A stretch of DNA of 64,000 nucleotides from a virus. Numbering within the stretch: position 1 is the stretch's first letter; the number at the start of each line of letters is the position of its first letter. A model generated the notes under the pieces. That model made no database searches. It was not told the DNA's origin and worked only from the letters and a program-made list of their open reading frames with translations. The stretch is from the IMG/VR virus record IMGVR_UViG_3300027759_000048; one strand, 5' to 3'. Below, piece by piece: positions 11,489-64,000 of the stretch. A program made the translations under genes and the position numbers.

Positions 11489-14431
11489 ATGGCAAAGAAG
11501 TTAATTAAATCATATGTTTTCACACCGGGAGCGGCGGGAGTGGGATCCGTTGTTATTCCAGGCAAGGTGTCTATTGAAGATTTGTTGCTAGTTACTAACG
11601 TAACAAGAAACGTCATTATCTATAACTTCGGTGCTCCTGAATTTATTGGAACAACAGTTGTCTATACTGCCGCTGATACTGCTTTGTTCACAAATCTTCT
11701 TCAGAAAGAAGCTGGTTATACAACTATTACTCTTGCTTACAATACATCAACCCATAGTGCTACAGACAAACTACAAGTATTCGTAGAAGATTCAAAAGAC
11801 GGTGTTAAGATTAGACCATGGGCATTTGGTACTGACGCCATTGAACGTATTCGTGTAGCAAATCCACAGTCAATGATTGACGCCGACTTTGAATACGGTC
11901 TACAGCCTACGAAGTGGGCAGGTTACGGCACAATTCGTGGTTATCCTTCAACATACGAATTGCCAGGTATCGATCTAACAGTAACCACAGTTACCACAGA
12001 CTTCAATGCTACAAGTTCAACAAACAGTGTAATTACAGCAACATTCGATTCTGCTCATGGTATGGTCGCAGGTCAAGTTATTTGTATGACAAGTTTGAAT
12101 CCTGCTGTTGTTGGTTTCAGTAGAGCGGCAGGTAACTTTATCATCAACTCAGTGCCATCTTCTACATCCGTCACATACTTTGCTAAAGGTATTGTAGGAA
12201 CATTCAACGGTCAAAATTTGTTTATCACCTCTACACTAGCAAAAAGAGGTGCTCTCTACTCGGTATCAGAAATCGTTGTTAAAGATGCCACATCATCTGG
12301 TGCGATTCCTTCTGTTATGACGATCAATTTTAATGCTCCTCATGGACTTCTACCAGGTACACAGATATATGCTAACGTTGGATCTGGTAACTATGCCAAC
12401 CTAGCAACTGGTCCGTTTGTTATTACAAGCGTACCGTCACAAAACTCTTTCATCTATACTGCCAGAACAGGAGCAGCAGTTGCTTCTCCAGCTTTGATGA
12501 ATGTTTATGCGTTCAACTCATCATCTATTGTCCATCGACCACAAGACGGTGGTGTTGTTCTTGAAACAGGAACACCGACATATGGTGCTGTCGCAGTTCG
12601 TCAGACTAAAAAGTATTTCCGTTATCAATCTGGTAAAGGTTATTTCTGGTCAACTGGTACATTGTTTAAACCAAACTATGACGTTCAATCTATTACCTCC
12701 AGTGGTCTAGGCATTGGTTCTACTGTAACAGTAACCACAGATAATATCGATCATGGTTTACAACCTGGTGCGATTATTAGATTAAACAGTGTATTGACAT
12801 CTGGTTATAACGGAACATATACCGTCACTAGTATCGTAAGTGACTATTCTTTCACCTTTACTGCTACACAAAATCTTGGTGCCACTAGTGCGGTGCTTGA
12901 TATTGATTGTAGAGTTTATATTGACAGATGGACTGGCGCTTGTGTTAGAGCCGGTATGTTTGACGATCAGAACGGTATTTTCTGGGAGTTCGATGGTAAT
13001 AGACTTTATGTGGTTAGAAGATCATCCACGGCACAGGTTACTGGTACAGTTTCAGCAACATTAAACAGCAGTCTTATTACAGGAACAAGCACAAGATTTA
13101 CTCAGCAACTTAAAGCTGGTGATAAGGTCATGATTAGAGGTATGACACACTTTATTTCATATGTTGCGGATGATATAACCGCATACATTACACCAGATTA
13201 TCGTGGTGTTACTGCTACAGGTATTAAAGCAAGTATGATTAGAGAGTTGAGAATTCCTCAGAATGAATTTAACGTTGATACTATCGACGGTAACGGTCCT
13301 AGTGGATACAACATCGATCTAAACAAAATGCAGATGATGGCTATTCAGTTCTCATGGTACGGCGCTGGCTTCATTGATTACATGGTTCGTGGTTCAGATG
13401 GTAACTTCTTAACAGCACATCGTATCAAAAACAATAACGTCAATGACGAATCCTATATGCGTTCTGGTAACTTGCCTGTTCGTTATTCTATCGAGAATGA
13501 CTGTCCAGTTAGTTTCTTGACTACTGCTATGAATGCTACACAGAATACTATTCCAATCAAAGAAACTAAGTTCTTTCCTAATACGGGCATCGTTTATATT
13601 GACAATGAAATCATTAGTTATAATGGTAAGAGCACTACATCTGGTACAGGTAATCTGACGAATGCTGTTAGAAACTTTACTATGTCACAGTATCAATCCG
13701 GATCATCATATAATCTAACAGCGGGAGCTAACGTTGCTCACTCAGCCGCTAACGGCGTTATTATGATTCAGACAACTTGTAGTCCGACACTCAATCACTG
13801 GGGTTCTGCTCTTATTCTTGACGGTGGGTTTGACTCGGAACGTGGTTACATCTTCAACTATCAAAGAATTAACATGCCGCTTACAACTACAGCGCAGACG
13901 GCGTTCGTTATTCGTCTTGCTCCATCAGTTGAAAACTCACAGATTGGTCCATTGGGTTCTAAGACATTGCTCAATCGTTCTCAGTTGCTACTAGAAGAAG
14001 TCGGTGTTGCTGTCTCCGGCGGTTCATCATCACCTTTAGTTGGTAACATTATTATTGAAGGTATTCTCAATCCTAAGAACTTTAGTAATGCTACATGGAC
14101 AGCATTGAACACAGAGTCCGTGGGTGGACAGCCAAGTTTCGCTCAGGTTTCTCAGACTGTTATTTGGTCAACTATCGGTGCTGGTCCATCTTCTGGTGTT
14201 CAGTATGCTATTCCTGGTGAGCAGGTGTTCGCTTTCGCTGGTCAGGCAACTACATCAGGCGCTGTTAGTGATCGTCTTGACATCGGTAAACTAAAAGAGT
14301 TGACGGGTGCTCCACTTGGTGGTGACTTTAAGTATCCTGACGGCTCTGATATTCTAGCAATCAATATTAGAACGACATCAGGTACAGCGAACGCCGCACT
14401 TGTTTTGCGATGGTCAGAAGCACAGGCATAA
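11489..14431 (+). CDS. Large virion fibre/structural protein (980 aa, beta-rich, putative lectin-like)
   Basis: MAKKLI.SY.FTPG N-terminus, QSMIDADFEYGLQPTKW and VRQTKKYFRYQSGKG motifs as in T4-like structural proteins. Confidence 0.7.
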   Translation: MAKKLIKSYVFTPGAAGVGSVVIPGKVSIEDLLLVTNVTRNVIIYNFGAPEFIGTTVVYTAADTALFTNLLQKEAGYTTITLAYNTSTHSATDKLQVFVEDSKDGVKIRPWAFGTDAIERIRVANPQSMIDADFEYGLQPTKWAGYGTIRGYPSTYELPGIDLTVTTVTTDFNATSSTNSVITATFDSAHGMVAGQVICMTSLNPAVVGFSRAAGNFIINSVPSSTSVTYFAKGIVGTFNGQNLFITSTLAKRGALYSVSEIVVKDATSSGAIPSVMTINFNAPHGLLPGTQIYANVGSGNYANLATGPFVITSVPSQNSFIYTARTGAAVASPALMNVYAFNSSSIVHRPQDGGVVLETGTPTYGAVAVRQTKKYFRYQSGKGYFWSTGTLFKPNYDVQSITSSGLGIGSTVTVTTDNIDHGLQPGAIIRLNSVLTSGYNGTYTVTSIVSDYSFTFTATQNLGATSAVLDIDCRVYIDRWTGACVRAGMFDDQNGIFWEFDGNRLYVVRRSSTAQVTGTVSATLNSSLITGTSTRFTQQLKAGDKVMIRGMTHFISYVADDITAYITPDYRGVTATGIKASMIRELRIPQNEFNVDTIDGNGPSGYNIDLNKMQMMAIQFSWYGAGFIDYMVRGSDGNFLTAHRIKNNNVNDESYMRSGNLPVRYSIENDCPVSFLTTAMNATQNTIPIKETKFFPNTGIVYIDNEIISYNGKSTTSGTGNLTNAVRNFTMSQYQSGSSYNLTAGANVAHSAANGVIMIQTTCSPTLNHWGSALILDGGFDSERGYIFNYQRINMPLTTTAQTAFVIRLAPSVENSQIGPLGSKTLLNRSQLLLEEVGVAVSGGSSSPLVGNIIIEGILNPKNFSNATWTALNTESVGGQPSFAQVSQTVIWSTIGAGPSSGVQYAIPGEQVFAFAGQATTSGAVSDRLDIGKLKELTGAPLGGDFKYPDGSDILAINIRTTSGTANAALVLRWSEAQA

Positions 14432-51308: not shown

Positions 51309-51830
51309 ATGGCATTAGAGTCCTTTGCTTCAAACACACCACAGAATAGCAGTATTCTACAGCTAACACGATTTACGTTTATCATACCTGATAAGCCATA
51401 TCTAAAGTATTTCTGCCAGACAGTCTCCATACCATCAGTATCAACATCTGAGGTAACTGTACCAACACCTTTCTCTAATACATATCGTCATGGTGATAAG
51501 TTAGCATTTGAGCCATTGTCTATTACAGCTATCGTTGATGAAGATATGCGTATATGGGAAGAGACATACAACTGGCTCAAAGGATTAACAAGACCATCAT
51601 CATCAGAAGAATACTTGAGAAAAGGTCTACAAGATAAAACTCCTCTTTACTTTGACGGTTATCTAACTGTCAATACCAACGCAAATAATCCGAACATTCG
51701 TTTTAAGTTTCACAATTGTCATCCAACCTCATTGGGTGGAATTGATTTCGATACTAAGACAGATGCGGATAACATTCCTACCTGCACAATTCAATTCCGT
51801 TACGATCTATTTGAAGTAGAAAGATTTTGA
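51309..51830 (+). CDS. gp3: Tail completion/tube terminator gp3
   Basis: YFCQ...IP, GDKL.F..L.IT..VDEDM..W.E.YNW; position after gp23. Confidence 0.85.
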   Translation: MALESFASNTPQNSSILQLTRFTFIIPDKPYLKYFCQTVSIPSVSTSEVTVPTPFSNTYRHGDKLAFEPLSITAIVDEDMRIWEETYNWLKGLTRPSSSEEYLRKGLQDKTPLYFDGYLTVNTNANNPNIRFKFHNCHPTSLGGIDFDTKTDADNIPTCTIQFRYDLFEVERF

Positions 51831-51855
51831 CTTTCTGACTGATATATGATACACT
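51827..51855 (+). promoter_or_regulatory. Sigma70-like early/middle promoter for uvsY
   Basis: TTGACT-N17-TACACT. Confidence 0.6.
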
Positions 51856-51887
51856 ACACAGTCTAATGGCTGATAAAGGATTACATA

Positions 51888-52337
51888 ATGCTTACTGCAC
51901 CGGTGACACTTGAAACATTGATGAAGGAATGGGCAAGTGATACTAGTATAAACCCAGATGCTATGGAAAAGGAAACTCTAAAGATTTCCCATCTTCATAG
52001 CAAATACCTTAATGTTCGTGTCCATCATAACATTCTATTGCGTAGAATGGAAACAGATTACAAGTTGCTTAAAGGCTTGCGTGAAGAATACTATCAAGGT
52101 CATCTTACAAAGGAAGACTGTGATGAAAGAGGATGGGACTATATGCAGCATGTATTGTCTAATCCGCAGATTGCTAGAAAACTTGATACAGATGCCGAAC
52201 TAAATAAACTGTTACTTAAAAGAATAGCACATGAAGAGATTGTCTCCTATTGTGATATGGTTCTAAAGTCTCTACACAATAGAACGTGGGATCTAGGAAA
52301 CTTTATCAAGTATAAACATATGATGAATGGAAACTAA
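51888..52337 (+). CDS. uvsY: Recombination mediator UvsY
   Basis: W..D..I...E..KI..LHSKYL, EYY.G, L..R.W.L.N.I; upstream of uvsW. Confidence 0.85.
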   Translation: MLTAPVTLETLMKEWASDTSINPDAMEKETLKISHLHSKYLNVRVHHNILLRRMETDYKLLKGLREEYYQGHLTKEDCDERGWDYMQHVLSNPQIARKLDTDAELNKLLLKRIAHEEIVSYCDMVLKSLHNRTWDLGNFIKYKHMMNGN

Positions 52338-53807
52338 GTGCATATCACTATTACTAATGAGAATGAATCCTACATCAAGGTTCACTGTGACGAAAGCGTG
52401 GCATGGGAACTTAGAGACGCATTCTCATTTAGACCCCCAGGGTTTCAGTTTGTTCCTTCTTACAAGCAGAAACTTTGGGATGGTTATCTAAGACTATTCA
52501 ATCCACTCAATAGACAAATGTATCGTGGTCTAGCACCACAAGTTATTGAATGGGCAGAGAACCATGGATATACATTTGAGTATTCTGGTGAAGACCTAGA
52601 TACATCATTCTCATTAGATGAGGCAAAAGAGTTTGTTGAAAAACTTAACCCGAAACATCTTCCTAGAGATTATCAGATGGATGCTTTCGTCCATGCTATT
52701 CGTTCTAAACGTCGCATTGTTCTTAGTCCTACTGGTTCCGGCAAGTCTCTTTTGCTATATCTTGTTTGTAATTATCTTCTTAAACAAGGGAAGCGAGGCC
52801 TTCTTATTGTTCCGAGGTCAGCCCTAGTAGAACAAATGTATAGTGACTTTGAGGACTATTCTGCTAAGAATGGCAAAGACATGGACAAGTATTGTCATCG
52901 TGTCTATTCAGGTAAAGATAAAGTATCAGAGAAGCCAATTATAATCTCTACATGGCAGTCATTACAGAGATTACCAAAAGAATACTTTCAACAGTTTGAC
53001 TACGTTATCTGTGACGAAGTGCATCAGGCACAAGCTAAGGCGCTAACAGATATCGTAGGTAAATGTACCAAGGCAAACTATCGTCTTGGTGTAACAGGAA
53101 CACTATCAGGTGCCAAGTCTCATGAATGGCAGTTGATAGGGTTGTTTGGTCAAGTCTATAAGGCTACAACCTCGGCTGAGTTGATGAAGAAAAAGCAACT
53201 GGCTGAATTGACCATTAAATGTTTGATATTGAAATATAGTGACGAAGAATGTCAGTATATGAAATCAGCATCATATCAGGATGAGATAAAGTATATCATA
53301 TCTAATCCTGCACGTAACACATTTGTTACAAATCTTGCTATCTCAATGGAAGGCAATACTCTATTGCTGTTCAACTATGTTGAGTCGCATGGTGCTATTC
53401 TATATGACATGATTAAGAGTAAATCTAAAGAAGGACGAAAGGTCTTCTTTATTCACGGAGGAACAAATGTCGAAGATAGAGAACAAATACGAAGGATCGT
53501 CGAGACTGAACACAATGCTATTATTGTTGGGTCCGTTGGTGTTCTTAGCACTGGTACTAACATCGTGGCCTTGGATAACGTCATATTTTCATCTCCTTCC
53601 AAGTCCAAGATTCGTAACTTACAATCAATCGGTAGAGGTCTTAGGGTTAGTGACACAAAGAAATCCGCCACCTTATATGACATTGCCGACGACTTTAGCT
53701 GGAAGTCAAAAGAGAATTTTACTCTCAAGCATTTCTTCGAGCGAGTTAAAACCTACAACGAAGAAAAGTTCAAGTTCAAAATCTACAAAATAAGTATGAA
53801 AGGATAG
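52338..53807 (+). CDS. uvsW: UvsW RNA-DNA/DNA helicase
   Basis: WDG..RLF, SPTGSGKS, DEVH, QSIGRGLR; GTG start. Confidence 0.95.
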   Translation: MHITITNENESYIKVHCDESVAWELRDAFSFRPPGFQFVPSYKQKLWDGYLRLFNPLNRQMYRGLAPQVIEWAENHGYTFEYSGEDLDTSFSLDEAKEFVEKLNPKHLPRDYQMDAFVHAIRSKRRIVLSPTGSGKSLLLYLVCNYLLKQGKRGLLIVPRSALVEQMYSDFEDYSAKNGKDMDKYCHRVYSGKDKVSEKPIIISTWQSLQRLPKEYFQQFDYVICDEVHQAQAKALTDIVGKCTKANYRLGVTGTLSGAKSHEWQLIGLFGQVYKATTSAELMKKKQLAELTIKCLILKYSDEECQYMKSASYQDEIKYIISNPARNTFVTNLAISMEGNTLLLFNYVESHGAILYDMIKSKSKEGRKVFFIHGGTNVEDREQIRRIVETEHNAIIVGSVGVLSTGTNIVALDNVIFSSPSKSKIRNLQSIGRGLRVSDTKKSATLYDIADDFSWKSKENFTLKHFFERVKTYNEEKFKFKIYKISMKG

Positions 53808-53810
53808 ATT

Positions 53811-54230
53811 ATGGATATCAGTGATTATCCCAATGCGAAGCTAGTTAGATTACAAAATGGGGATGATGTGATTGCGGAAGTAGTTGAGATGGAGGATGAG
53901 AATGGTGTAGTCTATGCGCTATTCCATCCTCTTAAAGTTGTATATGTACCTTCGGAATCTTCAGGTTATCTTACTGTAGCATTTATGCCATGGGTCTTTC
54001 CACGTATATGTGAGCAACAAGAGTTCATTATACATTCCCTTGATATTCTGTTTATGGTAGATGTAGCACCAAAGATGAATGAGTATTACTGGAACAACAT
54101 GGACTACTATACAAAGAAGTCACAAGAGGAAGAAAAGGTAAATGAAAAGTCCGAGGAAGAAAACTCTTTTGAAAGGTTGAAAGAGGCCTTAGAAGAAGCA
54201 GGACTATATAATAAGAAGGTGTATCACTAA
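53811..54230 (+). CDS. Conserved T4-like hypothetical protein (Sm-like fold candidate)
   Basis: VRL.NG.D.I..V...P......PW; standard position after uvsW. Confidence 0.65.
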   Translation: MDISDYPNAKLVRLQNGDDVIAEVVEMEDENGVVYALFHPLKVVYVPSESSGYLTVAFMPWVFPRICEQQEFIIHSLDILFMVDVAPKMNEYYWNNMDYYTKKSQEEEKVNEKSEEENSFERLKEALEEAGLYNKKVYH

Positions 54231-54532
54231 TGGCTACTACAACTAACCCATACCTATCACTAGAAGATGCTGACCTAGTAGATGACTTTGGTTTTTCATT
54301 CAGCAACGAAGACGACATTGTAGCAGAAGCAACTGCTCCTACAGTGGATGAAATCGCTGACCTTAAAAAGAGATTGGAAGCAGTCAGAAAGATATATCTT
54401 CCTCTACTACAGAACTTATCAAAGAATTCCGATCAACCTATTATCAAGTGGCCTGATCGTGGTCCTGTGCTTAAAAAGCAGATTGATAAGCTAATGATGC
54501 TTACTGAACCAGGATTTACTACTGCTAAGTAG
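54230..54532 (+). CDS. Conserved hypothetical protein
   Basis: DFGFS...PLL.NL.KN.D...I.WP.R. Confidence 0.65.
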   Translation: MATTTNPYLSLEDADLVDDFGFSFSNEDDIVAEATAPTVDEIADLKKRLEAVRKIYLPLLQNLSKNSDQPIIKWPDRGPVLKKQIDKLMMLTEPGFTTAK

Positions 54533-54608
54533 TTGCTTCGCAACACTCGCTTCGCTCGTAAGTTGCATTTGGTTTGCAATTGGTAGTAGTGGTGTTAATG
54601 CAAAGCAT

Positions 54609-54637
54609 ATTATACCGAGGTGTGAAAAGCCTGTCAA
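54609..54637 (-). promoter_or_regulatory. Perfect consensus sigma70 promoter on minus strand
   Basis: Plus strand reads ATTATA-N17-TGTCAA, i.e. TTGACA-N17-TATAAT on the minus strand. Confidence 0.75.
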
Positions 54638-54662
54638 GGGCCAAAATGAAAGTTTTTACATT

Positions 54663-55430
54663 ATGTTCCATTTTTTTCATAGAGCGCCTGAGATCCATCT
54701 AGACTGCTTTACAGCTAGTAATGAAACCTACATGACAACACCCATTGTCAGAGCAAGTAAAGCATTTCCAGACTGGTGGCAACAGCTAACTCCCTACGAA
54801 CCTACTTTCTATAGCACACCTGAGAACGGACACTTTCTTAGAAAACACGAAGATATGACGGCTAGGGATTGCTATGCTATTGTGGAATTGTATAAGAAAG
54901 GTATCATAATAGAAAACTGGAGTGATATCTCATTCAAGATTGAAGATGGTATCTATCATTACTGGGCTGCCAACAATACCGATCCGCCTCAAGATCATAT
55001 TAGAGAACAACTCGGTGGATCTTTTCCTAATCATTATCATATCAAACTTGTAAGTCCTTGGGCATTCAGAGAGAAGACAGGCGCTAAGTTTCTATGGCTT
55101 GGTGCGGAATGGTCTCTTGATAAACTTGAAATAAAAGTCTTGCCAGGGGTGATAAACTTTGATATAATATCTCCAGTGAATGTGAATTTTATGTTTCCTA
55201 TGCGGAATGGAACGTTTATGATACCTGTCGGTAATCCTTTCGTTCATCTAGTTCCGTTGTCAGAAAAGAAACTAAAGGTTCATAATCATCTGGTAACAAA
55301 GCCTGAGTTTGAAAAGTTGAGACTGATATCAGATAACCCATCATTCTATGGATGGAGAAAAGTGTTACAGCTTAGGAAAAGAAATAAAGAACGAGGAACA
55401 TGTCCGTTCCATGGAGACAGCAATGGCTAA
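54663..55430 (+). CDS. Hypothetical protein (possible dUTPase-like/DUF6065-type beta fold)
   Basis: PDWW..L, C....L...G, SPW, LPG.I, G.P...LVP, terminal CPFH. Confidence 0.55.
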   Translation: MFHFFHRAPEIHLDCFTASNETYMTTPIVRASKAFPDWWQQLTPYEPTFYSTPENGHFLRKHEDMTARDCYAIVELYKKGIIIENWSDISFKIEDGIYHYWAANNTDPPQDHIREQLGGSFPNHYHIKLVSPWAFREKTGAKFLWLGAEWSLDKLEIKVLPGVINFDIISPVNVNFMFPMRNGTFMIPVGNPFVHLVPLSEKKLKVHNHLVTKPEFEKLRLISDNPSFYGWRKVLQLRKRNKERGTCPFHGDSNG

Positions 55431-55995
55431 GAAGAAAACGCACTATGTAGATAACGAAAGATTTTATAATGAGATAGTTGAGTATAAGAAAAACTGTAAG
55501 ATTGCCCTTGCTGAAGGTAAAGAGAAGCCTGTTCTTTCGGACTACATAGGAAAGTGTATCTTTCTTATTGCGGAGAACTTAGCACATAAGCCTAGGTTCA
55601 TGAACTACTCGTTTGTTGATGAAATGAAATCTGACGCCATTGAAAACTGCTTGATGTATTTTGATAACTTTGATAGTGACAAGTATAGTAATCCGTTCGC
55701 ATACTTTACACAGATCATCTACTACGCCTTTCATAGACGTATAAACAAAGAAGAGAAGAATAGATATATAATATACAAGAAGTTTCAAGAGAGTGTTCTT
55801 GATTCCAGTGTATCTGATTTGATGCTTGATAACGATGGTAATCATATGATACCGACCACAATGTATGATAACATCAATGAGTTTATCGGTAGGTTTGAGG
55901 AAAGAGAACTGGTAAAGAAAGAAAAGCGTAAAGAGAAAAAAGAAGGTCTTGAAAAGTTTGTAGGAGAGAGTGATGAAAGAAGAGAATCAGTTTGA
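55423..55995 (+). CDS. gp55: Late transcription sigma factor gp55 (start ATG 55423)
   Basis: HYVDN..F, IAE.L...P.F.NY...EM.SD..ENC, NPFAYFTQI.YYAF.RRI.KE; SD GGAG. Confidence 0.95.
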   Translation: MAKKKTHYVDNERFYNEIVEYKKNCKIALAEGKEKPVLSDYIGKCIFLIAENLAHKPRFMNYSFVDEMKSDAIENCLMYFDNFDSDKYSNPFAYFTQIIYYAFHRRINKEEKNRYIIYKKFQESVLDSSVSDLMLDNDGNHMIPTTMYDNINEFIGRFEERELVKKEKRKEKKEGLEKFVGESDERRESV

Positions 55996-56179
55996 TGTAC
56001 CTTTTCAGGTTCAGTCATTGATTGCTACCATGAAGGACAAGAAAGAACGAGTTCATGTTCGTGGCAACTATCGCCAGCGTCTTGCTGCTATCAAGACAGC
56101 TATTGATAATGCCATTGTGGAATATGATAGAGAGATGGGAAACGTTATCGCACCTAAGTTTAAGCGGGAGCGACGATAA
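55973..56179 (+). CDS. Small hypothetical protein
   Basis: SD AGGAG; R.NYR.RL motif. Confidence 0.6.
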   Translation: MKEENQFDVPFQVQSLIATMKDKKERVHVRGNYRQRLAAIKTAIDNAIVEYDREMGNVIAPKFKRERR

Positions 56180-56361
56180 TGGATATTGATGATATGGTCA
56201 AAGAGATTGATCAAAACATTGAATGGTTCTGTGATAAGGTCGTTGAACCTTTTCCTATTGATAAGCAAAGTAAAGACAAGGTTATGAAGCGTATGATTTC
56301 CTTAGGTTGGCTTCGTCAATCAGAATATGAGACTTACAATGAAGCTACCAAAGAAGATTGA
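56179..56361 (+). CDS. Small hypothetical protein
   Basis: TAATG coupling, 60 aa. Confidence 0.55.
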   Translation: MDIDDMVKEIDQNIEWFCDKVVEPFPIDKQSKDKVMKRMISLGWLRQSEYETYNEATKED

Positions 56362-56386
56362 CGAGGTCATCTTTTTAGTTTATACT
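56358..56386 (+). promoter_or_regulatory. Sigma70-like promoter for gp47-ftsH
   Basis: TTGACG-N17-TATACT. Confidence 0.7.
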
Positions 56387-56424
56387 GTGTCTTTGAACTT
56401 GTTACGTGAACTAAAGGAAAGATT

Positions 56425-57501
56425 ATGGCGCTGATTGCTATGCCAACTGATACACACGCCGGAGTCAGAAATGATAATCCGGCGTTTCAGTTGTACCAAA
56501 ATAAATGTTGGAAGTGGTTCTTCGATTACATTGATGAGCATAAGATCAAGCATGTCATTCATCTTGGTGATATCTATGACCGTCGTAAGTATGTGAACTT
56601 TATGTCGGCAAAGCGACTTCGTGAAGATTTCTTTGAACCTCTAGCAGATAGAGGTATTGAAACGCATATCATCGTTGGTAATCATGATATGTATTATAAA
56701 GACACACACGAGGTTAACGCACTAGATGAAATTATCGCCGGACGATATGGGAATATTCATACTCATTCTGTACCTAGTATTGTCAATATTGATGGGTTGG
56801 ATATTCAGTTGATGCCATGGATTACAGAGAGTAATCGAGAAGCAGCATTTGAAGCAATCACAAAGCCTAAGGCAGAAATCATGATGGGTCACCTTGAAGT
56901 TCAAGGTTTCACCATGCACAAAGGAGCAATATCAGACCATGGTATGGATCGCAACGTCTTTGATAAATTTGATAGAGTGTATTCGGGTCACTATCATCAC
57001 CGTTCTACTATTGGCAATGTTAGTTATATTGGTGCCTTTGGCGAATATACTTGGGCTGATTACAACGATCCTCGAGGGTTTAGTGTCCTGGATACTAACA
57101 CTAGAAATTTAGAGTTTATCAAGAATCCTTATCGTATGTTCAGGATCGTCAAGTATGATGATGTCGTTGATGATAACATTATTGAGAAGATACAGAAAAC
57201 AGATTTCAGCAGATTTAAAGATTGCTACATAAAGTTAGTAGTCGTAAACAAATCTAATCCGTATGCGTTTGACCTGTTATTTGACTCACTATATAAAGCA
57301 GGGCCATTAGATATACAGATTGTTGAAGATGCTTCCGTCCTCATAGACAATGAAGACGATATGGAAGTTGATGAAGCGGAAGATACCGCAACGATATTAA
57401 GAAAATACATTTCCGGGCTAACATTGCCTGTGAACAATGATAAGATGAAAGATTTTATGATAGATGTATATAACGAAGCCCTCCAAGTGGAGACAGTCTA
57501 A
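56425..57501 (+). CDS. gp47: Recombination nuclease gp47 (Mre11/SbcD-like)
   Basis: TDTH, HLGD, GNHD, GHL, SGHYH metallophosphoesterase motifs. Confidence 0.95.
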
Positions 57502-57512
57502 GGGAATTTGAT

Positions 57513-59297
57513 ATGAAGAAACATTTAGCATGGTTGGCATTCATTGCCGTTGCTATCTTTTTGGTAGCGACAATTTGGAGCGAACCGAATAAGAAAACAA
57601 CCAGTGAGATCGGATATAGTGATTTCATTGCACAGGTAGATGGTGATAAAATCCACGATGTTGTTATTAGTGGTAGTGAGATTGTAGGTCACTATAGAGA
57701 CAACAATAGAACATTCTCCACATATGTTGCTAGTCTTTCTACACTATTACCAAGACTAGAGCAACACAAAGTTAATGTAACGGTGAGACCTGAATCCGAA
57801 GGAAACTTCTGGGTCAATCTGTTTATCAATATCTTTCCCATCTTTCTATTCTTTGGCTTATGGATGTTTCTTACTCGTCGTGGTCCTGCTGGTGGCGGCG
57901 TTATGGGTATGGGTAAGTCAAAAGCAAAACTACTCACAGAAAGCAATACCAAGATAACCTTTGAAGATGTTGCTGGTGTAGACCATGCTAAAGACGATTT
58001 ACAGGAAGTTGTAGAGTTTCTACAAGACCCACATAAGTTTGAAAGACTTGGTGGTAAGATTCCAAAAGGCGTTCTACTCGTTGGTCCTCCAGGTACAGGT
58101 AAGACACTATTAGCAAGAGCCGTTGCTGGTGAAGCTGGTGTTCCTTTCTTTAGTATCTCTGGTTCAGACTTTGTTGAAATGTTTGTCGGCGTCGGTGCTT
58201 CCCGTGTCCGTGATATGTTTGAACAAGCAAAGAAGAATGCTCCTTGCATTATCTTTATTGATGAGATTGATGCTGTTGGTCGCTCCCGTGCCAATGGTAT
58301 CAGTGGCAACGATGAAAGAGATCAGACATTGAATGCTATGCTCGTTGAGATGGATGGCTTTGAAACAAACGAAGGTATCATCATTGTAGCAGCAACAAAC
58401 CGTGTTGATGTTCTCGATCAAGCATTGCTACGCCCAGGTCGTTTTGATAGACAGATCCAAGTTCCGAATCCTGACTTTGTTGGTCGTGAAAAGATTTTGA
58501 AAGTTCACACTCGCAAAGTTCCGATTGGTCCTGATGTTGATCTAAAGATTGTAGCAAAAGGAACACCTGGTTTCTCTGGTGCTGATCTTGCTAATCTTGT
58601 CAACGAAGCGGCTCTACTAGCGGCAAGACGATCAAAGCGTATTGTTACTAGAATGGAGTTTGAAGATGCCCGTGATAAGATCCTTATGGGTCCAGAGCGT
58701 AAGTCACTATTGATGACTGATGAAGAAAAGAGAATGACTGCCTATCACGAAGCTGGTCACGCTCTAGTATCACTCAATATGCCTGGCTCTATTCCTATTC
58801 ACAAGGCAACAATCATTCCTCGTGGACGTGCATTGGGTATGGTTCAATCTCTACCAGAACGTGATCAAATCTCACAGTCTTATGAAGAGATGATTGCCCA
58901 ACTAGCAATGGCTATGGGTGGACGAGTTGCTGAAGAGATTATCTTTGGTAATAAGAATGTAACCTCTGGTGCGTCTGGTGATATCCAGATGGCGACTAAA
59001 CTTGCAAGAGCAATGGTTACACAACTTGGGTTTTCTCCTATTCTTGGTAGAATGGCATACAGTGATCCTAGTGCTGATATGTGGCATTCACCTAAGATTG
59101 CTGAGGAAACACAAAAGATTGTTGATAAGGAAGTATTGCGTCTTGTAGAAGAAGGATACGATACCGCAAAGAAAATTATCATTAGAAAGAGAAAAGACCT
59201 TGACACACTAGCGAAAGGCCTGCTAGAATATGAAACTCTATCAGGTGAAGAAATCTCAGACTTGTTAGAAGGAAAGATACCAACTAGAGAGTTTTAA
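57513..59297 (+). CDS. ftsH: ATP-dependent zinc metalloprotease FtsH (full length)
   Basis: Two TM helices, [15 protein letters not shown] pore loop, [12 protein letters not shown]...[14 protein letters not shown]. Confidence 0.96.
59200..59229 (+). promoter_or_regulatory. Sigma70-like promoter within 3' end of ftsH, upstream of gp46
   Basis: TTGACA-N18-TAGAAT with TG extended -10. Confidence 0.55.
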
Positions 59298-61018
59298 TGT
59301 TAACCTTTCATTATGTCAAGTGGCGCAACTTTCTGTCCGCTGGTAATCAGTGGACAGAAATTTCTTTAGATACACATAAGAACACACTCATTATGGGACA
59401 CAACGGCTCGGGAAAGTCAACCTTTCTCGATGCCCTTACATTCGTTCTTTTCGGCAAACCTTTTCGTAAAGTTAGTAAAGGTAATGTTGTCAACTCTATC
59501 AATCAAAAGAATTGTGAGGTAGAGATTGAGTTTACATCAAGTAACAAAAGATACAAAGTAATCCGTGGTGCAAAGCCTAATGTGTTTGAAATCTTTTGTG
59601 AAGGTGTCAAAGTAAATCAAGACGCCGCAGTTAAAGATTACCAAGAGTATCTTGAAAAGTATATTATCAAGATGAACTACAAGTCCTTTACACAGATTGT
59701 TATTCTCGGCTCTGCCTCATTCACACCATTTATGCAGTTGTCTTCCAATGATCGTCGTGCCGTCATCGAAGAACTATTGGACATTCAAATCTTTACTGCC
59801 ATGACTAATGTGATCAAGACACGTTTACAAGTCAATCGTGAAGGTATCGAAAAGAACAAAATCACTCTTACAAGCAAAGAAGAAAATAAAACTTACATTG
59901 AACAGACATTGGCCTCATTAAAGGTCAATAATGAAAGTAAAGTTTCCGAATTGCGACTAAAAGAACAAGAACTAAAAGATAGTTTAGTTGCCGAACAAGC
60001 TATCATTTCCGACTTAGAAACAAAGAGAGATACCATCATTGAGAAAGGTGCTGATACCTCGGCATTGAAATCAAAGCATAGTAAGCTAATCAGTTTCAAG
60101 GCTAAGATGGAAGGTAACATGGATCGGTTTCAAACCGAGGCACATTTTCTAATGGAGAACAATACTTGTCCAACTTGTCATCAGGATATTGATACATCGT
60201 TCAAGAATGTTAGACTAGATGAAATAGGAAACAAAACTGGTGAACTTGCTGACGGACTAAATAAGGTTGAAGAACAGATTACTTCAATTCTAGCAGAGAT
60301 TGAAAAGATAGATGAAATTCTACGAAGCCTCAATCAAATTAAGATGGATCTTTCATCTGCTAAGTCTACCTATAAGCATATTTCTAATAATCTTAATCAA
60401 ATCATTGAACAGATTGAGTCCTTGGCGTCATCAGATAAAACCACCCAAGAGTCAGAACGACAACTCGAAACCGTCCAATATGATATTTCCACCCTCGAAG
60501 AAGAAAAGAAGACCCTTCTAGATGAGCGGACATACATCGACCTCGCTACTACTCTACTCAAAGATGGTGGAATCAAAACTAAGATCATTAAGCAATATCT
60601 CCCAATCATCAACAAGCACATCAATAAGTATCTGGCAAAACTTGGTTTCTTCGTCAACTTTAACATTAACGAGTCCTTTGAGGAAACAATCAAATCAAGA
60701 TACCGAGATGAGTTTTCATACCATAACTTTTCTGAGGGAGAGAAACTAAGAATTGATCTTGCTATTCTACTCACATGGCGTCAGGTTGCCAAGCTAAAGA
60801 ATAGCGTCAATGTCAATATACTTGTGTTTGATGAGATCCTAGATCGTGCTATGGATACAGCAGGTATAGATGAGTTCATTCGTATTATGTGGGATATAGG
60901 TCATGAAGGTGGAAACATCTTTGTTATCTCTCACAAAGATACAATGGTAGATAAGTTCCAAAGAACATTACAATTCCAAAAAGTGAAGAACTTTTCCACC
61001 TTGACAAACGATGGCTAG
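59297..61018 (+). CDS. gp46: Recombination ATPase gp46 (Rad50/SbcC-like)
   Basis: GHNGSGKST, CPTC zinc hook, FSEGEK signature, DEILD, ISH. Confidence 0.96.
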   Translation: MLTFHYVKWRNFLSAGNQWTEISLDTHKNTLIMGHNGSGKSTFLDALTFVLFGKPFRKVSKGNVVNSINQKNCEVEIEFTSSNKRYKVIRGAKPNVFEIFCEGVKVNQDAAVKDYQEYLEKYIIKMNYKSFTQIVILGSASFTPFMQLSSNDRRAVIEELLDIQIFTAMTNVIKTRLQVNREGIEKNKITLTSKEENKTYIEQTLASLKVNNESKVSELRLKEQELKDSLVAEQAIISDLETKRDTIIEKGADTSALKSKHSKLISFKAKMEGNMDRFQTEAHFLMENNTCPTCHQDIDTSFKNVRLDEIGNKTGELADGLNKVEEQITSILAEIEKIDEILRSLNQIKMDLSSAKSTYKHISNNLNQIIEQIESLASSDKTTQESERQLETVQYDISTLEEEKKTLLDERTYIDLATTLLKDGGIKTKIIKQYLPIINKHINKYLAKLGFFVNFNINESFEETIKSRYRDEFSYHNFSEGEKLRIDLAILLTWRQVAKLKNSVNVNILVFDEILDRAMDTAGIDEFIRIMWDIGHEGGNIFVISHKDTMVDKFQRTLQFQKVKNFSTLTNDG

Positions 61019-61029
61019 TGTAGTAGAAT
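61001..61029 (+). promoter_or_regulatory. Sigma70-like promoter for small-gene/modification cluster
   Basis: TTGACA-N17-TAGAAT. Confidence 0.7.
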
Positions 61030-61054
61030 GTATATCTAACTGAGAGGAATAGTT

Positions 61055-61168
61055 ATGATCACCTACGTTTATAATACACAGTTTGGTTATCAGCAATACA
61101 ACATCGACAATCTTTGGTTCGGTCTTTCACAGATGGGAGATGTTAATGTTTACCAAGAAACGAATTGA
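61055..61168 (+). CDS. 37-aa small protein (not in ORF track)
   Basis: SD GAGGA then ATG; MITYVYNTQFGYQQYNIDNLWFGLSQMGDVNVYQETN; directly after the promoter at 61001. Confidence 0.5.
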   Translation: MITYVYNTQFGYQQYNIDNLWFGLSQMGDVNVYQETN

Positions 61169-61382
61169 GTTCATTTTTGAATGGGCTTCTACATTCATTC
61201 TTCTTTGTGGAGCCGCACTAACATCCTTGAACATCTATCCTGCTAATGTTGTTCTATCACTAGCAGGCAATCTCGGATGGTTGGTTGTTTCACTAATGTG
61301 GCGTAAGCCATCACTAATAGTAATCCAGCTAGTGATATCATTCATATATGTTGCTGGTCTTATAGATAAAGGAGTTATCTAA
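61146..61382 (+). CDS. Small three-TM membrane protein
   Basis: W..T.....GA.LTS.NIYP.N......G..GW.....W...L; SD GGAG. Confidence 0.65.
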   Translation: MFTKKRIEFIFEWASTFILLCGAALTSLNIYPANVVLSLAGNLGWLVVSLMWRKPSLIVIQLVISFIYVAGLIDKGVI

Positions 61383-61489
61383 TGAGATACAATCACTGGT
61401 TTTGGAATAGCAGTTTCATAAATTGGTTGGCAAGTTTTGTCATTCGTGTCAATAACTATCTCTGGAGCAAACAGTATGGCAAAAACTGA
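61382..61489 (+). CDS. 35-aa Trp-rich peptide (not in ORF track)
   Basis: TAATG coupling; MRYNHWFWNSSFINWLASFVIRVNNYLWSKQYGKN. Confidence 0.45.
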   Translation: MRYNHWFWNSSFINWLASFVIRVNNYLWSKQYGKN

Positions 61490-61652
61490 TTCCAACAAAA
61501 ATCATTGCTACTCACAAGATTATAATAAGATGATCGCCTTCATACAAGAAGTTGGTAGTTTGAAACTGAAAAAAGACCGTAGCAATGAAATAGCTATAGT
61601 TCAAGAATACCTAGAGCAACGTGTCAAAGAAATCAAAGATAGGTGGAAATGA
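61476..61652 (+). CDS. Small hypothetical protein
   Basis: SD GGAG then ATG 61476; 58 aa. Confidence 0.55.
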   Translation: MAKTDSNKNHCYSQDYNKMIAFIQEVGSLKLKKDRSNEIAIVQEYLEQRVKEIKDRWK

Positions 61653-62449
61653 TAGATACTATATTAATGGACATTGTGAATGAACAATCAAAAGAACAAG
61701 ACGTAGCAGTATTACTATCAGGCGGCATTGACTCCATCTCTGTCGCCTTTGCTGCACATAGACTTGGCAAGACATTACATTGCTATACCATGTATGTTGA
61801 TGATGTCGTTTCTAAAGACGCACAGAACGCCATTGATACAGCAAAAGAGTTTAACTGGGATATCAATATCATTAATGTTCCTACTGTCAATATAGTGGGT
61901 GACTTTAAGCATTTGGTATCCCATTATAACTGTCAAAAGAAAACACAGCTAGAATGTACCTGGCCGTTTCTATATGTCTATCCCAATATCAAAGAGAAAG
62001 AACTACTGACAGGCTGGGGTGCTGATGGTTGGTATGGTGTATCTAAAAGAGCCTGCCTCCATTTCAAAGAGCCTAAAGAAAAGTTTGATGAGTTCCGCAA
62101 CGCATACTTTGCCGCTTCTAATCCAGTTGGTGTTAGACAGCAAGAGCAACTATGTGATGAACGTGGTATAAAGTTTATCGCTCCATACTTTGATGATCGT
62201 GTCCGAAATTATATGATGCAGTTTGATTGGTATGAGATGAACAGGCCATTCCAGAAAGTGAAAGTCGTCAGTGCCTTTCCTGAGTTCAAGAGAACAAAGG
62301 TAAGACGCCACGAGAACCTACAACTAGCAGCAAACATACCTAGTCAGTTTGAGAAACTGCTTGACAATCCCGAAATCAATCTCTATAATAGAAAACGAGT
62401 AATTGATCTTGTCCGTGATTGGCAAGACAAAGGAGAGTCGTTATTTTGA
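61649..62449 (+). CDS. Asparagine-synthetase-like ATP-dependent amide ligase (synthetase domain only)
   Basis: LLSGGIDS PP-loop, LTGWGADGWYG (cf. AsnB SGEGADE.FG), APYFD (cf. PFLD); no Ntn glutaminase domain. Confidence 0.8.
   Translation: MIDTILMDIVNEQSKEQDVAVLLSGGIDSISVAFAAHRLGKTLHCYTMYVDDVVSKDAQNAIDTAKEFNWDINIINVPTVNIVGDFKHLVSHYNCQKKTQLECTWPFLYVYPNIKEKELLTGWGADGWYGVSKRACLHFKEPKEKFDEFRNAYFAASNPVGVRQQEQLCDERGIKFIAPYFDDRVRNYMMQFDWYEMNRPFQKVKVVSAFPEFKRTKVRRHENLQLAANIPSQFEKLLDNPEINLYNRKRVIDLVRDWQDKGESLF
62361..62389 (+). promoter_or_regulatory. Perfect sigma70 promoter inside the amide ligase gene, driving MTase-cmoA
   Basis: TTGACA-N17-TATAAT. Confidence 0.75.
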
Positions 62450-63588
62450 AATACAAACCATATACTGTCAAAGATGTGAAGAAGGCTTCCGCTCAAAATA
62501 AGTTTTCCGTTATTAGTTGCTTCGCCGGTGGTGGTGGCAGTTCTACTGGCTATCGTCTTGCTGGTGGAAAGATATTATTGATTAATGAATTTGTGGAAGA
62601 AGCCATAGCGTCATATAAAAAGAACTATCCTGACACACCTGTTCTAGTTGATGATATCAAGAAATACGCCGGAAAAGACTTTTTAGACAAGGTTAAGCTA
62701 AAAGAAGGGGAGTTAGACATCCTCGACGGTTCCCCGCCATGCTCGGCTTTCTCTGTTGCGGGAAAACGGGAGAAAGGTTGGGACAAGACTAAGAGCTATT
62801 CTGACGGTAAGACGGTAGAGAATATCGAGGATTTATTCCTAGAGTTTATTCGTGTCGCTAATGAGATTAAGCCAAAGGTCATCGTGGCAGAGAATGTTAA
62901 AGGTATCACATTTGGTGAAGCAACTAAGAAGCTAAACGAGTTCATCAAAGCCTTTGAAGGTATTGGTTACTATGTCACATATAGAGTATTGAATGCTGCC
63001 GACTTTGGTGTTGCTCAAGGTAGAGAAAGAACAATCTTTATCTGTGTTCGTGAAGATGTAGCAGATGCCATCGGTTTATCGTTTCTCAATTTAGCAGGTA
63101 TCTTTCCAGATGAGTTTGGCTATCAGATATCAATGGAAGATGCTATTGACGATATCAAGAACGATCCAGAAGAAATCAAAGAGCTAAGAGACTTTTACGA
63201 AGGTTCGTTTCAGAAAAAGTTTCTTGACCCAATTCCTTTTAGACCAAAGCGGCATATGAAACCAAGTGACCCTGAGTTTCGTGAATGGAATCCCAAAGCA
63301 TCTTGCTTCAATATGATTAGACCTGCACCACATCTACCATGTCCAACATTAACACAGCAGGGACAGAAGAAAGGTTTGTCGGGTGTCTTTCATTATGCTG
63401 AGAACCGCAAGCTAACAATCAAAGAGCTAAAACGCCTTATGTCATTACCTGAAGATTATGAGTTGACAGGAACATTTGACCAGCAAGCAGAACGCATTGG
63501 TCGTATGGTTGCTCCAAAGATGATGGCAGAGGTTGCTAAGTCAATCTATGAGAATGTATTGAAACCATACAATGAGGTATCAAAATGA
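62446..63588 (+). CDS. C5 DNA cytosine methyltransferase homologue, predicted carboxymethyltransferase (motif X GRMV)
   Basis: FAGGGG (I), GSPPC (IV), ENV (VI), Q.RER (VIII), R.LT..E..R (IX), IGRMVAP (X). Probable TTG start at 62446 after AGGAG. Confidence 0.9.
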   Translation: MKYKPYTVKDVKKASAQNKFSVISCFAGGGGSSTGYRLAGGKILLINEFVEEAIASYKKNYPDTPVLVDDIKKYAGKDFLDKVKLKEGELDILDGSPPCSAFSVAGKREKGWDKTKSYSDGKTVENIEDLFLEFIRVANEIKPKVIVAENVKGITFGEATKKLNEFIKAFEGIGYYVTYRVLNAADFGVAQGRERTIFICVREDVADAIGLSFLNLAGIFPDEFGYQISMEDAIDDIKNDPEEIKELRDFYEGSFQKKFLDPIPFRPKRHMKPSDPEFREWNPKASCFNMIRPAPHLPCPTLTQQGQKKGLSGVFHYAENRKLTIKELKRLMSLPEDYELTGTFDQQAERIGRMVAPKMMAEVAKSIYENVLKPYNEVSK

Positions 63589-64000
63589 GTGATTATGATT
63601 TTACGTTTGCCCATCGTGACGAAGGCTTTGACAATCACATTGAAAAGTCCATTCGTGGTTATACACACCTACATGACGATGTTGTAAATTTGTCACGGTA
63701 TTATGTTGAAGATTGGACTAATGTAGTTGATATTGGATCATCAACTGGCAAGACGATTGAGGCAATGGCGATACAGAATGAAACTATTGCTCCTTCTGCC
63801 ACATACATTGGTGTAGAGGTTGCTACAGGCTTCAAGAATGATATGGAGAAACGCTTTACAGTTCTACGTGATAGATTTCCAGAAACATCTTTTGAGTTTG
63901 AGTTTTCCGATATTAGAAGCTATACCTTTTACAATTGTTCACTTGTAACATCTCTCTTTACTTTACAGTTCATGCCACCAAAAGACCGTGAAGAGGTTAT
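63585..64000 (+). CDS. cmoA: CmoA-like carboxy-SAM synthase (3' truncated; missing from ORF track)
   Basis: MSDYDFTF...FDNHIEKSIRGY...VVDIGSSTG...DIRSYTFYNCSLVTSLFTLQFMPPKDR aligns by eye with E. coli CmoA DWTF...F..MIQRSVPGY...VYDLGCSLG...DIR...NASMVVLNFTLQFL.P.ER; ATGA overlap. Confidence 0.85.
   Translation, partial: MSDYDFTFAHRDEGFDNHIEKSIRGYTHLHDDVVNLSRYYVEDWTNVVDIGSSTGKTIEAMAIQNETIAPSATYIGVEVATGFKNDMEKRFTVLRDRFPETSFEFEFSDIRSYTFYNCSLVTSLFTLQFMPPKDREEV

Follow-up and report, generated by a model that had tools for sequence, protein, structure and literature searches.

The stretch of DNA analysed here, referred to as the window, is 64,000 nucleotides (nt) long and comes from the IMG/VR virus record IMGVR_UViG_3300027759_000048. 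Its positions 61649-64000 are filled by three genes on the + strand, cmoY, cmoX and cmoA in that order (Y-X-A), which very probably form an operon orthologous to the CmoA/CmoX/CmoY genes of Synechococcus phage S-B43. The cmoY gene (61649-62449), predicted to encode an ATP-dependent amide ligase of 266 amino acids (aa), starts with ATG at 61649 and stops with TGA at 62449. The next gene, cmoX (62446-63588), is predicted to encode a DNA cytosine C5-carboxymethyltransferase of 380 aa and has a TTG start. The third, cmoA (63585-64000), starts with ATG and is predicted to encode a synthase of carboxy-S-adenosylmethionine (Cx-SAM); the window holds the first 138 of its 233 codons and its end cuts off the rest. 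The genes are joined by short overlaps, TTGA at 62446-62449, which places the cmoX start inside the cmoY stop, and ATGA at 63585-63588, which places the cmoA start inside the cmoX stop. The TTG at 62446 is most likely the true start of cmoX, because the homologues in relatives L005-L008 and in S-B43 show ATG at the aligned codon and because GGAG occurs some 10 nt before it. The same TTG start is common to relatives L002-L004. A preliminary description of this DNA had reported three genes coupled in this way, an AsnB-synthetase-domain protein without a glutaminase domain, a C5 DNA methyltransferase with all catalytic motifs and a CmoA homologue at the end of the window. The genes are found where it had placed them, the overlaps are confirmed, and the matches given below bear out each of the three identifications.

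The CmoA/CmoX/CmoY pathway was characterised in S-B43 in a report of December 2025 (Yang et al., Nat Commun 2025, PMC12783734). The S-B43 CmoA (SpCmoA) is a fast Cx-SAM synthase, faster than the E. coli enzyme (PMC12783734). The S-B43 CmoX (SpCmoX) transfers the carboxymethyl group of Cx-SAM, the only cofactor it uses, to C5 of cytosine at GC sites in double-stranded DNA (PMC12783734). Arg350, which stands where M.HhaI has Asn304, is in contact with the carboxymethyl group in the structure (PDB 8YF3), and the R350N mutant accepts neither Cx-SAM nor S-adenosylmethionine (SAM) (PMC12783734). The S-B43 CmoY (SpCmoY), an asparagine synthetase homologue without an amidase domain, carries out the ATP-dependent ligation of glycine to 5-carboxymethylcytosine (5cxmC); the virion DNA contains the glycine amide, 5-glycylcarboxymethylcytosine (5gcxmC), at about 75% of GC sites, and resistance to HhaI was demonstrated as well (PMC12783734). 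In phage sequence data 5,615 candidate CmoX, 4,257 CmoA and 2,251 ligase genes have been catalogued, with network thresholds of 1e-56 for SpCmoY and 1e-70 for SpCmoX used to group the enzymes (PMC12783734). A literature search on the name CmoX returned no second paper on the system.

The window CmoY matches Pfam Asn_synthase (1.8e-12, residues 8-131) and has the PP-loop SGGIDS at 61718-61735. A family scan of the 266-aa protein found no glutaminase domain. It aligns with SpCmoY over 267 columns at 51% identity (E 3e-94). An alignment of 17 CmoY homologues from both clades, the Y-X-A clade of the window and the clade of S-B43, has 97 invariant columns, and the two clades do not differ in the motif blocks that surround the active site. 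Among the invariant columns are the PP-loop and the blocks CxKKTxxECTxPFLY, GADGxYGxSK and HxKEPKEKFDxFR. An AlphaFold2 model of the protein (pLDDT 88, pTM 0.87) resembles, along its whole chain, the synthetase domain of beta-lactam synthetase and those of AsnB and human ASNS, with TMq 0.73-0.78 (0.73-0.75 against the domains in 1MC1, 1CT9 and 6GQ3). In profile comparison the closest protein of known structure is beta-lactam synthetase, at only 1e-5, and we know of no solved structure of a CmoY. More distant CmoY-like proteins, at 33-35% identity, are encoded by Erwinia and Dickeya jumbo phages.

CmoX covers the full profile of Pfam DNA_methylase (PF00145, 1.7e-53), and its NCBIfam match is likewise a generic C5 DNA methylase. 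The motifs FAGGGG, SPPC (62731-62742, with the catalytic Cys), ENV, QGRER and GRMV (63499-63510) are all present. Over its full length the protein is 52% identical to SpCmoX (E 5e-134), and its best match among all solved structures is PDB 8YF3, SpCmoX with Cx-SAM (E 6.8e-113). The second-best structure is HaeIII (E 1e-22), and the structures of M.MpeI rank low (E about 1e-10). In pairwise alignments the equivalents of SpCmoX F25, E47, F48, D69, C98 and R350 are all identical in the window protein. The arginine equivalent to R350 is encoded at 63502-63504, inside GRMV, where HaeIII has GNAV with Asn at the same columns. It is invariant in 12 of 12 aligned CmoX homologues. The predicted CmoX would use Cx-SAM as cofactor in place of SAM and give 5cxmC as the product.

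The recognition region of CmoX differs from that of SpCmoX by insertions of 5 aa and 6 aa, which flank a conserved TL dipeptide. After motif IV SpCmoX has an 8-aa insert that is missing from the window protein. By analogy with the S-B43 enzyme the target motif may resemble GC. Across the window (1-64000) the observed/expected ratios of dinucleotides are 1.10 for GC, which is not avoided, 1.04 for GG, 0.75 for CG and 0.71 for CC. The site after motif IV varies among the relatives as well. In the cmoX homologues of L002 (6771-8024) and L004-L008 a 27-29-aa insertion stands right after motif IV (after GKREKGW), in the loop that in C5 methylases closes over the flipped base. The window and L003 are without this insertion, and S-B43 has its 8 aa there. 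CmoX-like methylases with about 40% identity to the window protein are encoded by cultured phages of non-cyanobacterial hosts, namely Methylophilales phage Melnitz (MZ577095-MZ577098) and Moraxella phage Mcat8 (KR093632).

The 138 aa of CmoA in the window match NCBIfam TIGR00740 CmoA (1.9e-12) and PHROG 4752 (6e-29) and are 54% identical to SpCmoA (E 3e-49). An exact-protein look-up with CmoY led to L025, a JGI metagenome contig of 174,778 bp that matches window positions 51649-64000 at 99.95% identity over 12,352 bases, with 6 mismatches and no gaps. A 41-nt exact-match search of IMG/VR with the end of the window gave no match. L025 holds an intact cmoA of 233 aa at 11937-12638; the window gene is therefore cut by the window edge only. 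The complete protein and SpCmoA share 58% identity across 230 of 233 residues (E 2e-96), and a profile of the phage CmoA proteins matches E. coli CmoA over its whole length (E 3e-35).

The preliminary description had also proposed looking for the three genes together in other phages, and we did so in 23 related IMG/VR loci. Genes cmoA, cmoX and cmoY are all present in 19 of these; in the remaining four the contig breaks off on the side where the absent gene should lie. The Y-X-A order is found in the window, L025 and L002-L008 (CmoY 62-87% identical to that of the window), and the order A-Y-X in S-B43 and L009-L023. Megablast of window positions 61000-64000 against the phage collection gave no match, and relatives in that collection came from protein searches.

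Taken together, these data make it very likely that the locus is a cmoY-cmoX-cmoA operon orthologous to the S-B43 genes and has the same chemistry, with glycine as the most likely amine. The orthology, the catalytic and cofactor residues, the fold and the synteny come from the present analysis, and the chemistry from the S-B43 enzymes (PMC12783734). The E values against S-B43, 3e-94 for CmoY and 5e-134 for CmoX, lie far beyond the thresholds of 1e-56 and 1e-70 given in the same paper. In the proposed pathway CmoA would convert SAM and host prephenate to Cx-SAM. CmoX, with Arg in place of the motif X Asn, would use Cx-SAM instead of SAM and put 5cxmC into double-stranded phage DNA. CmoY would then adenylate the carboxylate and join an amine to it; with glycine, the likeliest amine, this would give 5gcxmC, and the resulting modified cytosine would protect the DNA from restriction. 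Taken by itself, the assignment of glycine to this CmoY is probable, with less confidence than the pathway as a whole. The sequence of Cx-SAM synthesis, C5 carboxymethylation and amidation had been put forward in the preliminary description. Its steps are those shown by experiment for the close relatives in S-B43, and the arginine that selects Cx-SAM is kept. The accompanying caveat, that Cx-SAM-dependent cytosine modification had already been reported in phages, was well placed: the pathway is not new, and the published S-B43 system includes glycine and the GC motif for that phage.

Several points weigh against this assignment. The Cmo activity in this phage is a prediction from sequence. The insertions in the recognition region of CmoX mean that the GC motif cannot be carried over from S-B43. 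CmoY shares only 51% of its residues with SpCmoY, and of the 36 Arg or Lys residues of SpCmoY 21 are basic in the window protein and 15 are not. The phage CmoA reaches 109.5 bits against the TIGR00740 cut-off of 193.3 and is outside the strict bacterial CmoA equivalog. SpCmoA, a proven Cx-SAM synthase, falls short of the cut-off too (115.6 bits), so that the score rules out membership of the bacterial equivalog and not activity. A further point concerns Arg199 of E. coli CmoA (4GEK), which is presumably a cofactor contact and whose equivalent the preliminary description had proposed to check once the rest of cmoA was retrieved. The whole gene was obtained from L025. In single-sequence as well as profile alignments Arg199 is opposite an invariant Glu190 of the phage proteins, and an invariant Arg194 follows four residues on, one helical turn later. 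Since SpCmoA has the same local sequence as the window clade and is a faster enzyme than that of E. coli, this alignment is no argument against activity.

The window clade has a promoter-like sequence within the operon. A perfect sigma70-type promoter, TTGACA-N17-TATAAT, lies on the + strand at 62361-62389. It is embedded in the 3'-terminal 90 nt of cmoY, 57 nt before cmoX begins. It is the sole perfect + strand match in the 64 kilobases. The sequence is kept at the same codons in seven of seven Y-X-A relatives (12 of 12 bases in six and 11 of 12 in one), and comparison of the same site found it absent from the S-B43 clade. Four codons have a synonymous base within a promoter hexamer, and three of them do not vary among the eight sequences, against 13 of 123 comparable codons (11%) gene-wide; the binomial probability is about 0.005 in what is a post hoc test. 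The promoter would be of host type and would give cmoX-cmoA extra transcription of their own, with a timing that is probably early.

A second candidate, TTGACA-N17-TAGAAT (11 of 12 bases), lies on the + strand at 61001-61029, in the 3' end of gp46 and upstream of the small ORFs (open reading frames) and cmoY, and is a consensus match only. It comes from a consensus scan of L025 (9353-9381; the window coordinate is that of L025 plus 51648). Promoter-like sites in the scan numbered 13, compared with 10.0 ± 2.8 in shuffles, which is no excess, and among them weight is given only to the perfect, conserved site at 62361-62389. The scan of the locus for promoters and terminators revealed no convincing terminator. 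About 440 nt past the end of the window, at L025 12792-12820, there is a sigma70-like TTGACA-N17-TATACT with an upstream TG (11 of 12 bases). It lies 3' of cmoA and 5' of a large gene that begins at L025 12846 and belongs to no Pfam or NCBIfam family; the counterpart in L003 is a 736-aa ORF. On its minus strand the window has a single perfect TTGACA-N17-TATAAT, at 54637-54609, in a region whose large ORFs are all on the + strand.

The same pathway might lead to another end product in this phage. The amine used by CmoY would then be another amino acid, ammonia or a polyamine, and/or the CmoX motif would not be GC, and the result would be an undescribed base or pattern. Differences between the clades are found right beside the invariant blocks of CmoY (GWGADGW vs GIGADGY and NPVGVRQQ vs NVTGFRQI). 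They add to the limited identity with SpCmoY and to the two insertions in the recognition region of CmoX. Other amines are moreover expected in other ligase clusters (PMC12783734). At E 3e-94, however, the window CmoY would be a direct neighbour of SpCmoY in the largest ligase cluster, which is said to keep the glycine-carboxylate-binding residues (PMC12783734), and the 97 invariant columns extend across both clades. Ammonia derived from glutamine is unlikely because CmoY has no glutaminase domain. On balance we regard a different end product as unlikely, although it is the likeliest of the alternatives. Comparably doubtful is a version for the Y-X-A clade as a whole, in which a different amide adduct and/or motif goes together with transcription of cmoX-cmoA from their own promoter inside cmoY. 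If this were true, carboxymethylation could be uncoupled from amidation in timing or level.

Readings that dispense with the pathway fare far worse. CmoX could be an ordinary SAM-dependent 5-methylcytosine methylase with cmoA and the AsnB-like gene as unrelated neighbours, active for instance in tRNA modification or SAM depletion; its family matches are to generic C5 DNA methylases, and CmoA is a tRNA-pathway enzyme in bacteria. This is nevertheless highly improbable. Arg stands in place of the motif X Asn, as it does in SpCmoX, whose wild type uses Cx-SAM only and whose R350N mutant uses neither cofactor (PMC12783734). The three genes are also translationally coupled and co-inherited in two gene orders. 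No CmoB appeared among the scanned adjoining ORFs (window 52338-61652 and the gene after cmoA in L025), although no search aimed at CmoB was made. We give even less credence to an inactive or decaying cassette, for which the incomplete cmoA and the weak TTG start of cmoX might be cited. The truncation is the window edge, the cmoA of L025 being intact at 233 aa, and the TTG is shared by L002-L004, with ATG at the aligned codon in L005-L008. The catalytic motifs are all intact and the promoter is conserved at synonymous sites. Orthology with the S-B43 system and the same chemistry remain the preferred reading.

Immediately upstream of the operon is a 58-aa ORF (61476-61652, + strand), which a third ATGA (61649-61652) couples to cmoY and which is also called as a gene in L025. 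It matched no Pfam or PHROG family, and the ORFs that occupy this position in L002, L003 and S-B43 are not similar to it. As a fourth component of the system it was rejected, since it is not conserved at the cmoY start, and judging from this comparison it is probably outside the cmo system. Between gp46 and the operon there is also a 99-aa ORF (61083-61382, + strand) that matches Pfam DUF6552 (2.9e-14). An ORF of equal length occupies the same place in L003 (4923-5222).

The window carries genes of T4-like myoviruses, among them those for the major head protein, the scaffold, a UvsW-type helicase and the gp47/gp46 nuclease. The major capsid protein is 62-65% identical to its best matches, which are in Pelagibacter phage Mosig, a Stenotrophomonas phage, Methylophilales phage Melnitz and several cyanophages. 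Judged by its genes, the source phage is an uncultured T4-like myovirus that has no close relative in culture. A complete FtsH-type AAA+ zinc protease is encoded on the + strand at 57513-59297, between the gp47-like (56425-57501) and gp46-like (59297-61018) genes. It scores 809 bits with TIGR01241 (cut-off 600) and matches Pfam FtsH_ext, AAA and Peptidase_M41; the arrangement is the same in L025.

The Cmo pathway is a recently found route of phage DNA hypermodification in which a carboxyl group serves as the handle in place of the classical hydroxymethyl group, and it is of interest for enzymatic DNA labelling. The locus described here leaves the known picture unchanged. It adds an orthologue about 50% diverged, with an altered recognition region, another gene order and an internal promoter. 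Such variants are useful for mapping variation in the specificity of CmoX and in the amine choice of CmoY.

Among known systems that of S-B43 is the closest. The two have the same three families at 51-58% identity over the full length, keep SPPC and the Cx-SAM-binding Arg, and share a stand-alone synthetase-domain ligase, tightly linked genes and a T4-like myovirus as the carrier. The S-B43 coordinates used for this comparison agree with the source data of the original paper (PMC12783734). The gene order is A-Y-X in S-B43 and Y-X-A here, and the conserved sigma70-type promoter in cmoY ahead of cmoX is a feature of the window clade. The window CmoX has two insertions in its recognition region and is without the 8-aa insert that follows motif IV in SpCmoX. 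Product and motif were measured in S-B43, whereas those of the window system are predictions.

The engineered methylase M.MpeI N374K (cited in PMC12783734) likewise has a basic residue for the motif X Asn, accepts Cx-SAM and yields 5cxmC. It differs in that the residue is Lys and the target CG; Arg takes this place in the natural enzymes, and the target of SpCmoX is GC. The bacterial CmoA/CmoB pathway of tRNA cmo5U34 (E. coli CmoA, PDB 4GEK) also begins with the synthesis of Cx-SAM from SAM and prephenate. Here, in contrast, the acceptor of Cx-SAM would be a homologue of DNA C5 methyltransferases instead of CmoB, and the phage CmoA scores below the curated cut-off. AsnB, beta-lactam synthetase and carbapenam synthetase (1CT9, 1JGT, 1Q15) resemble CmoY in the PP-loop ATP pyrophosphatase fold and in the adenylation of a carboxylate. 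They are only 13-20% identical to CmoY, which is without their N-terminal glutaminase domain and is predicted to act on a carboxylate borne by a DNA base.

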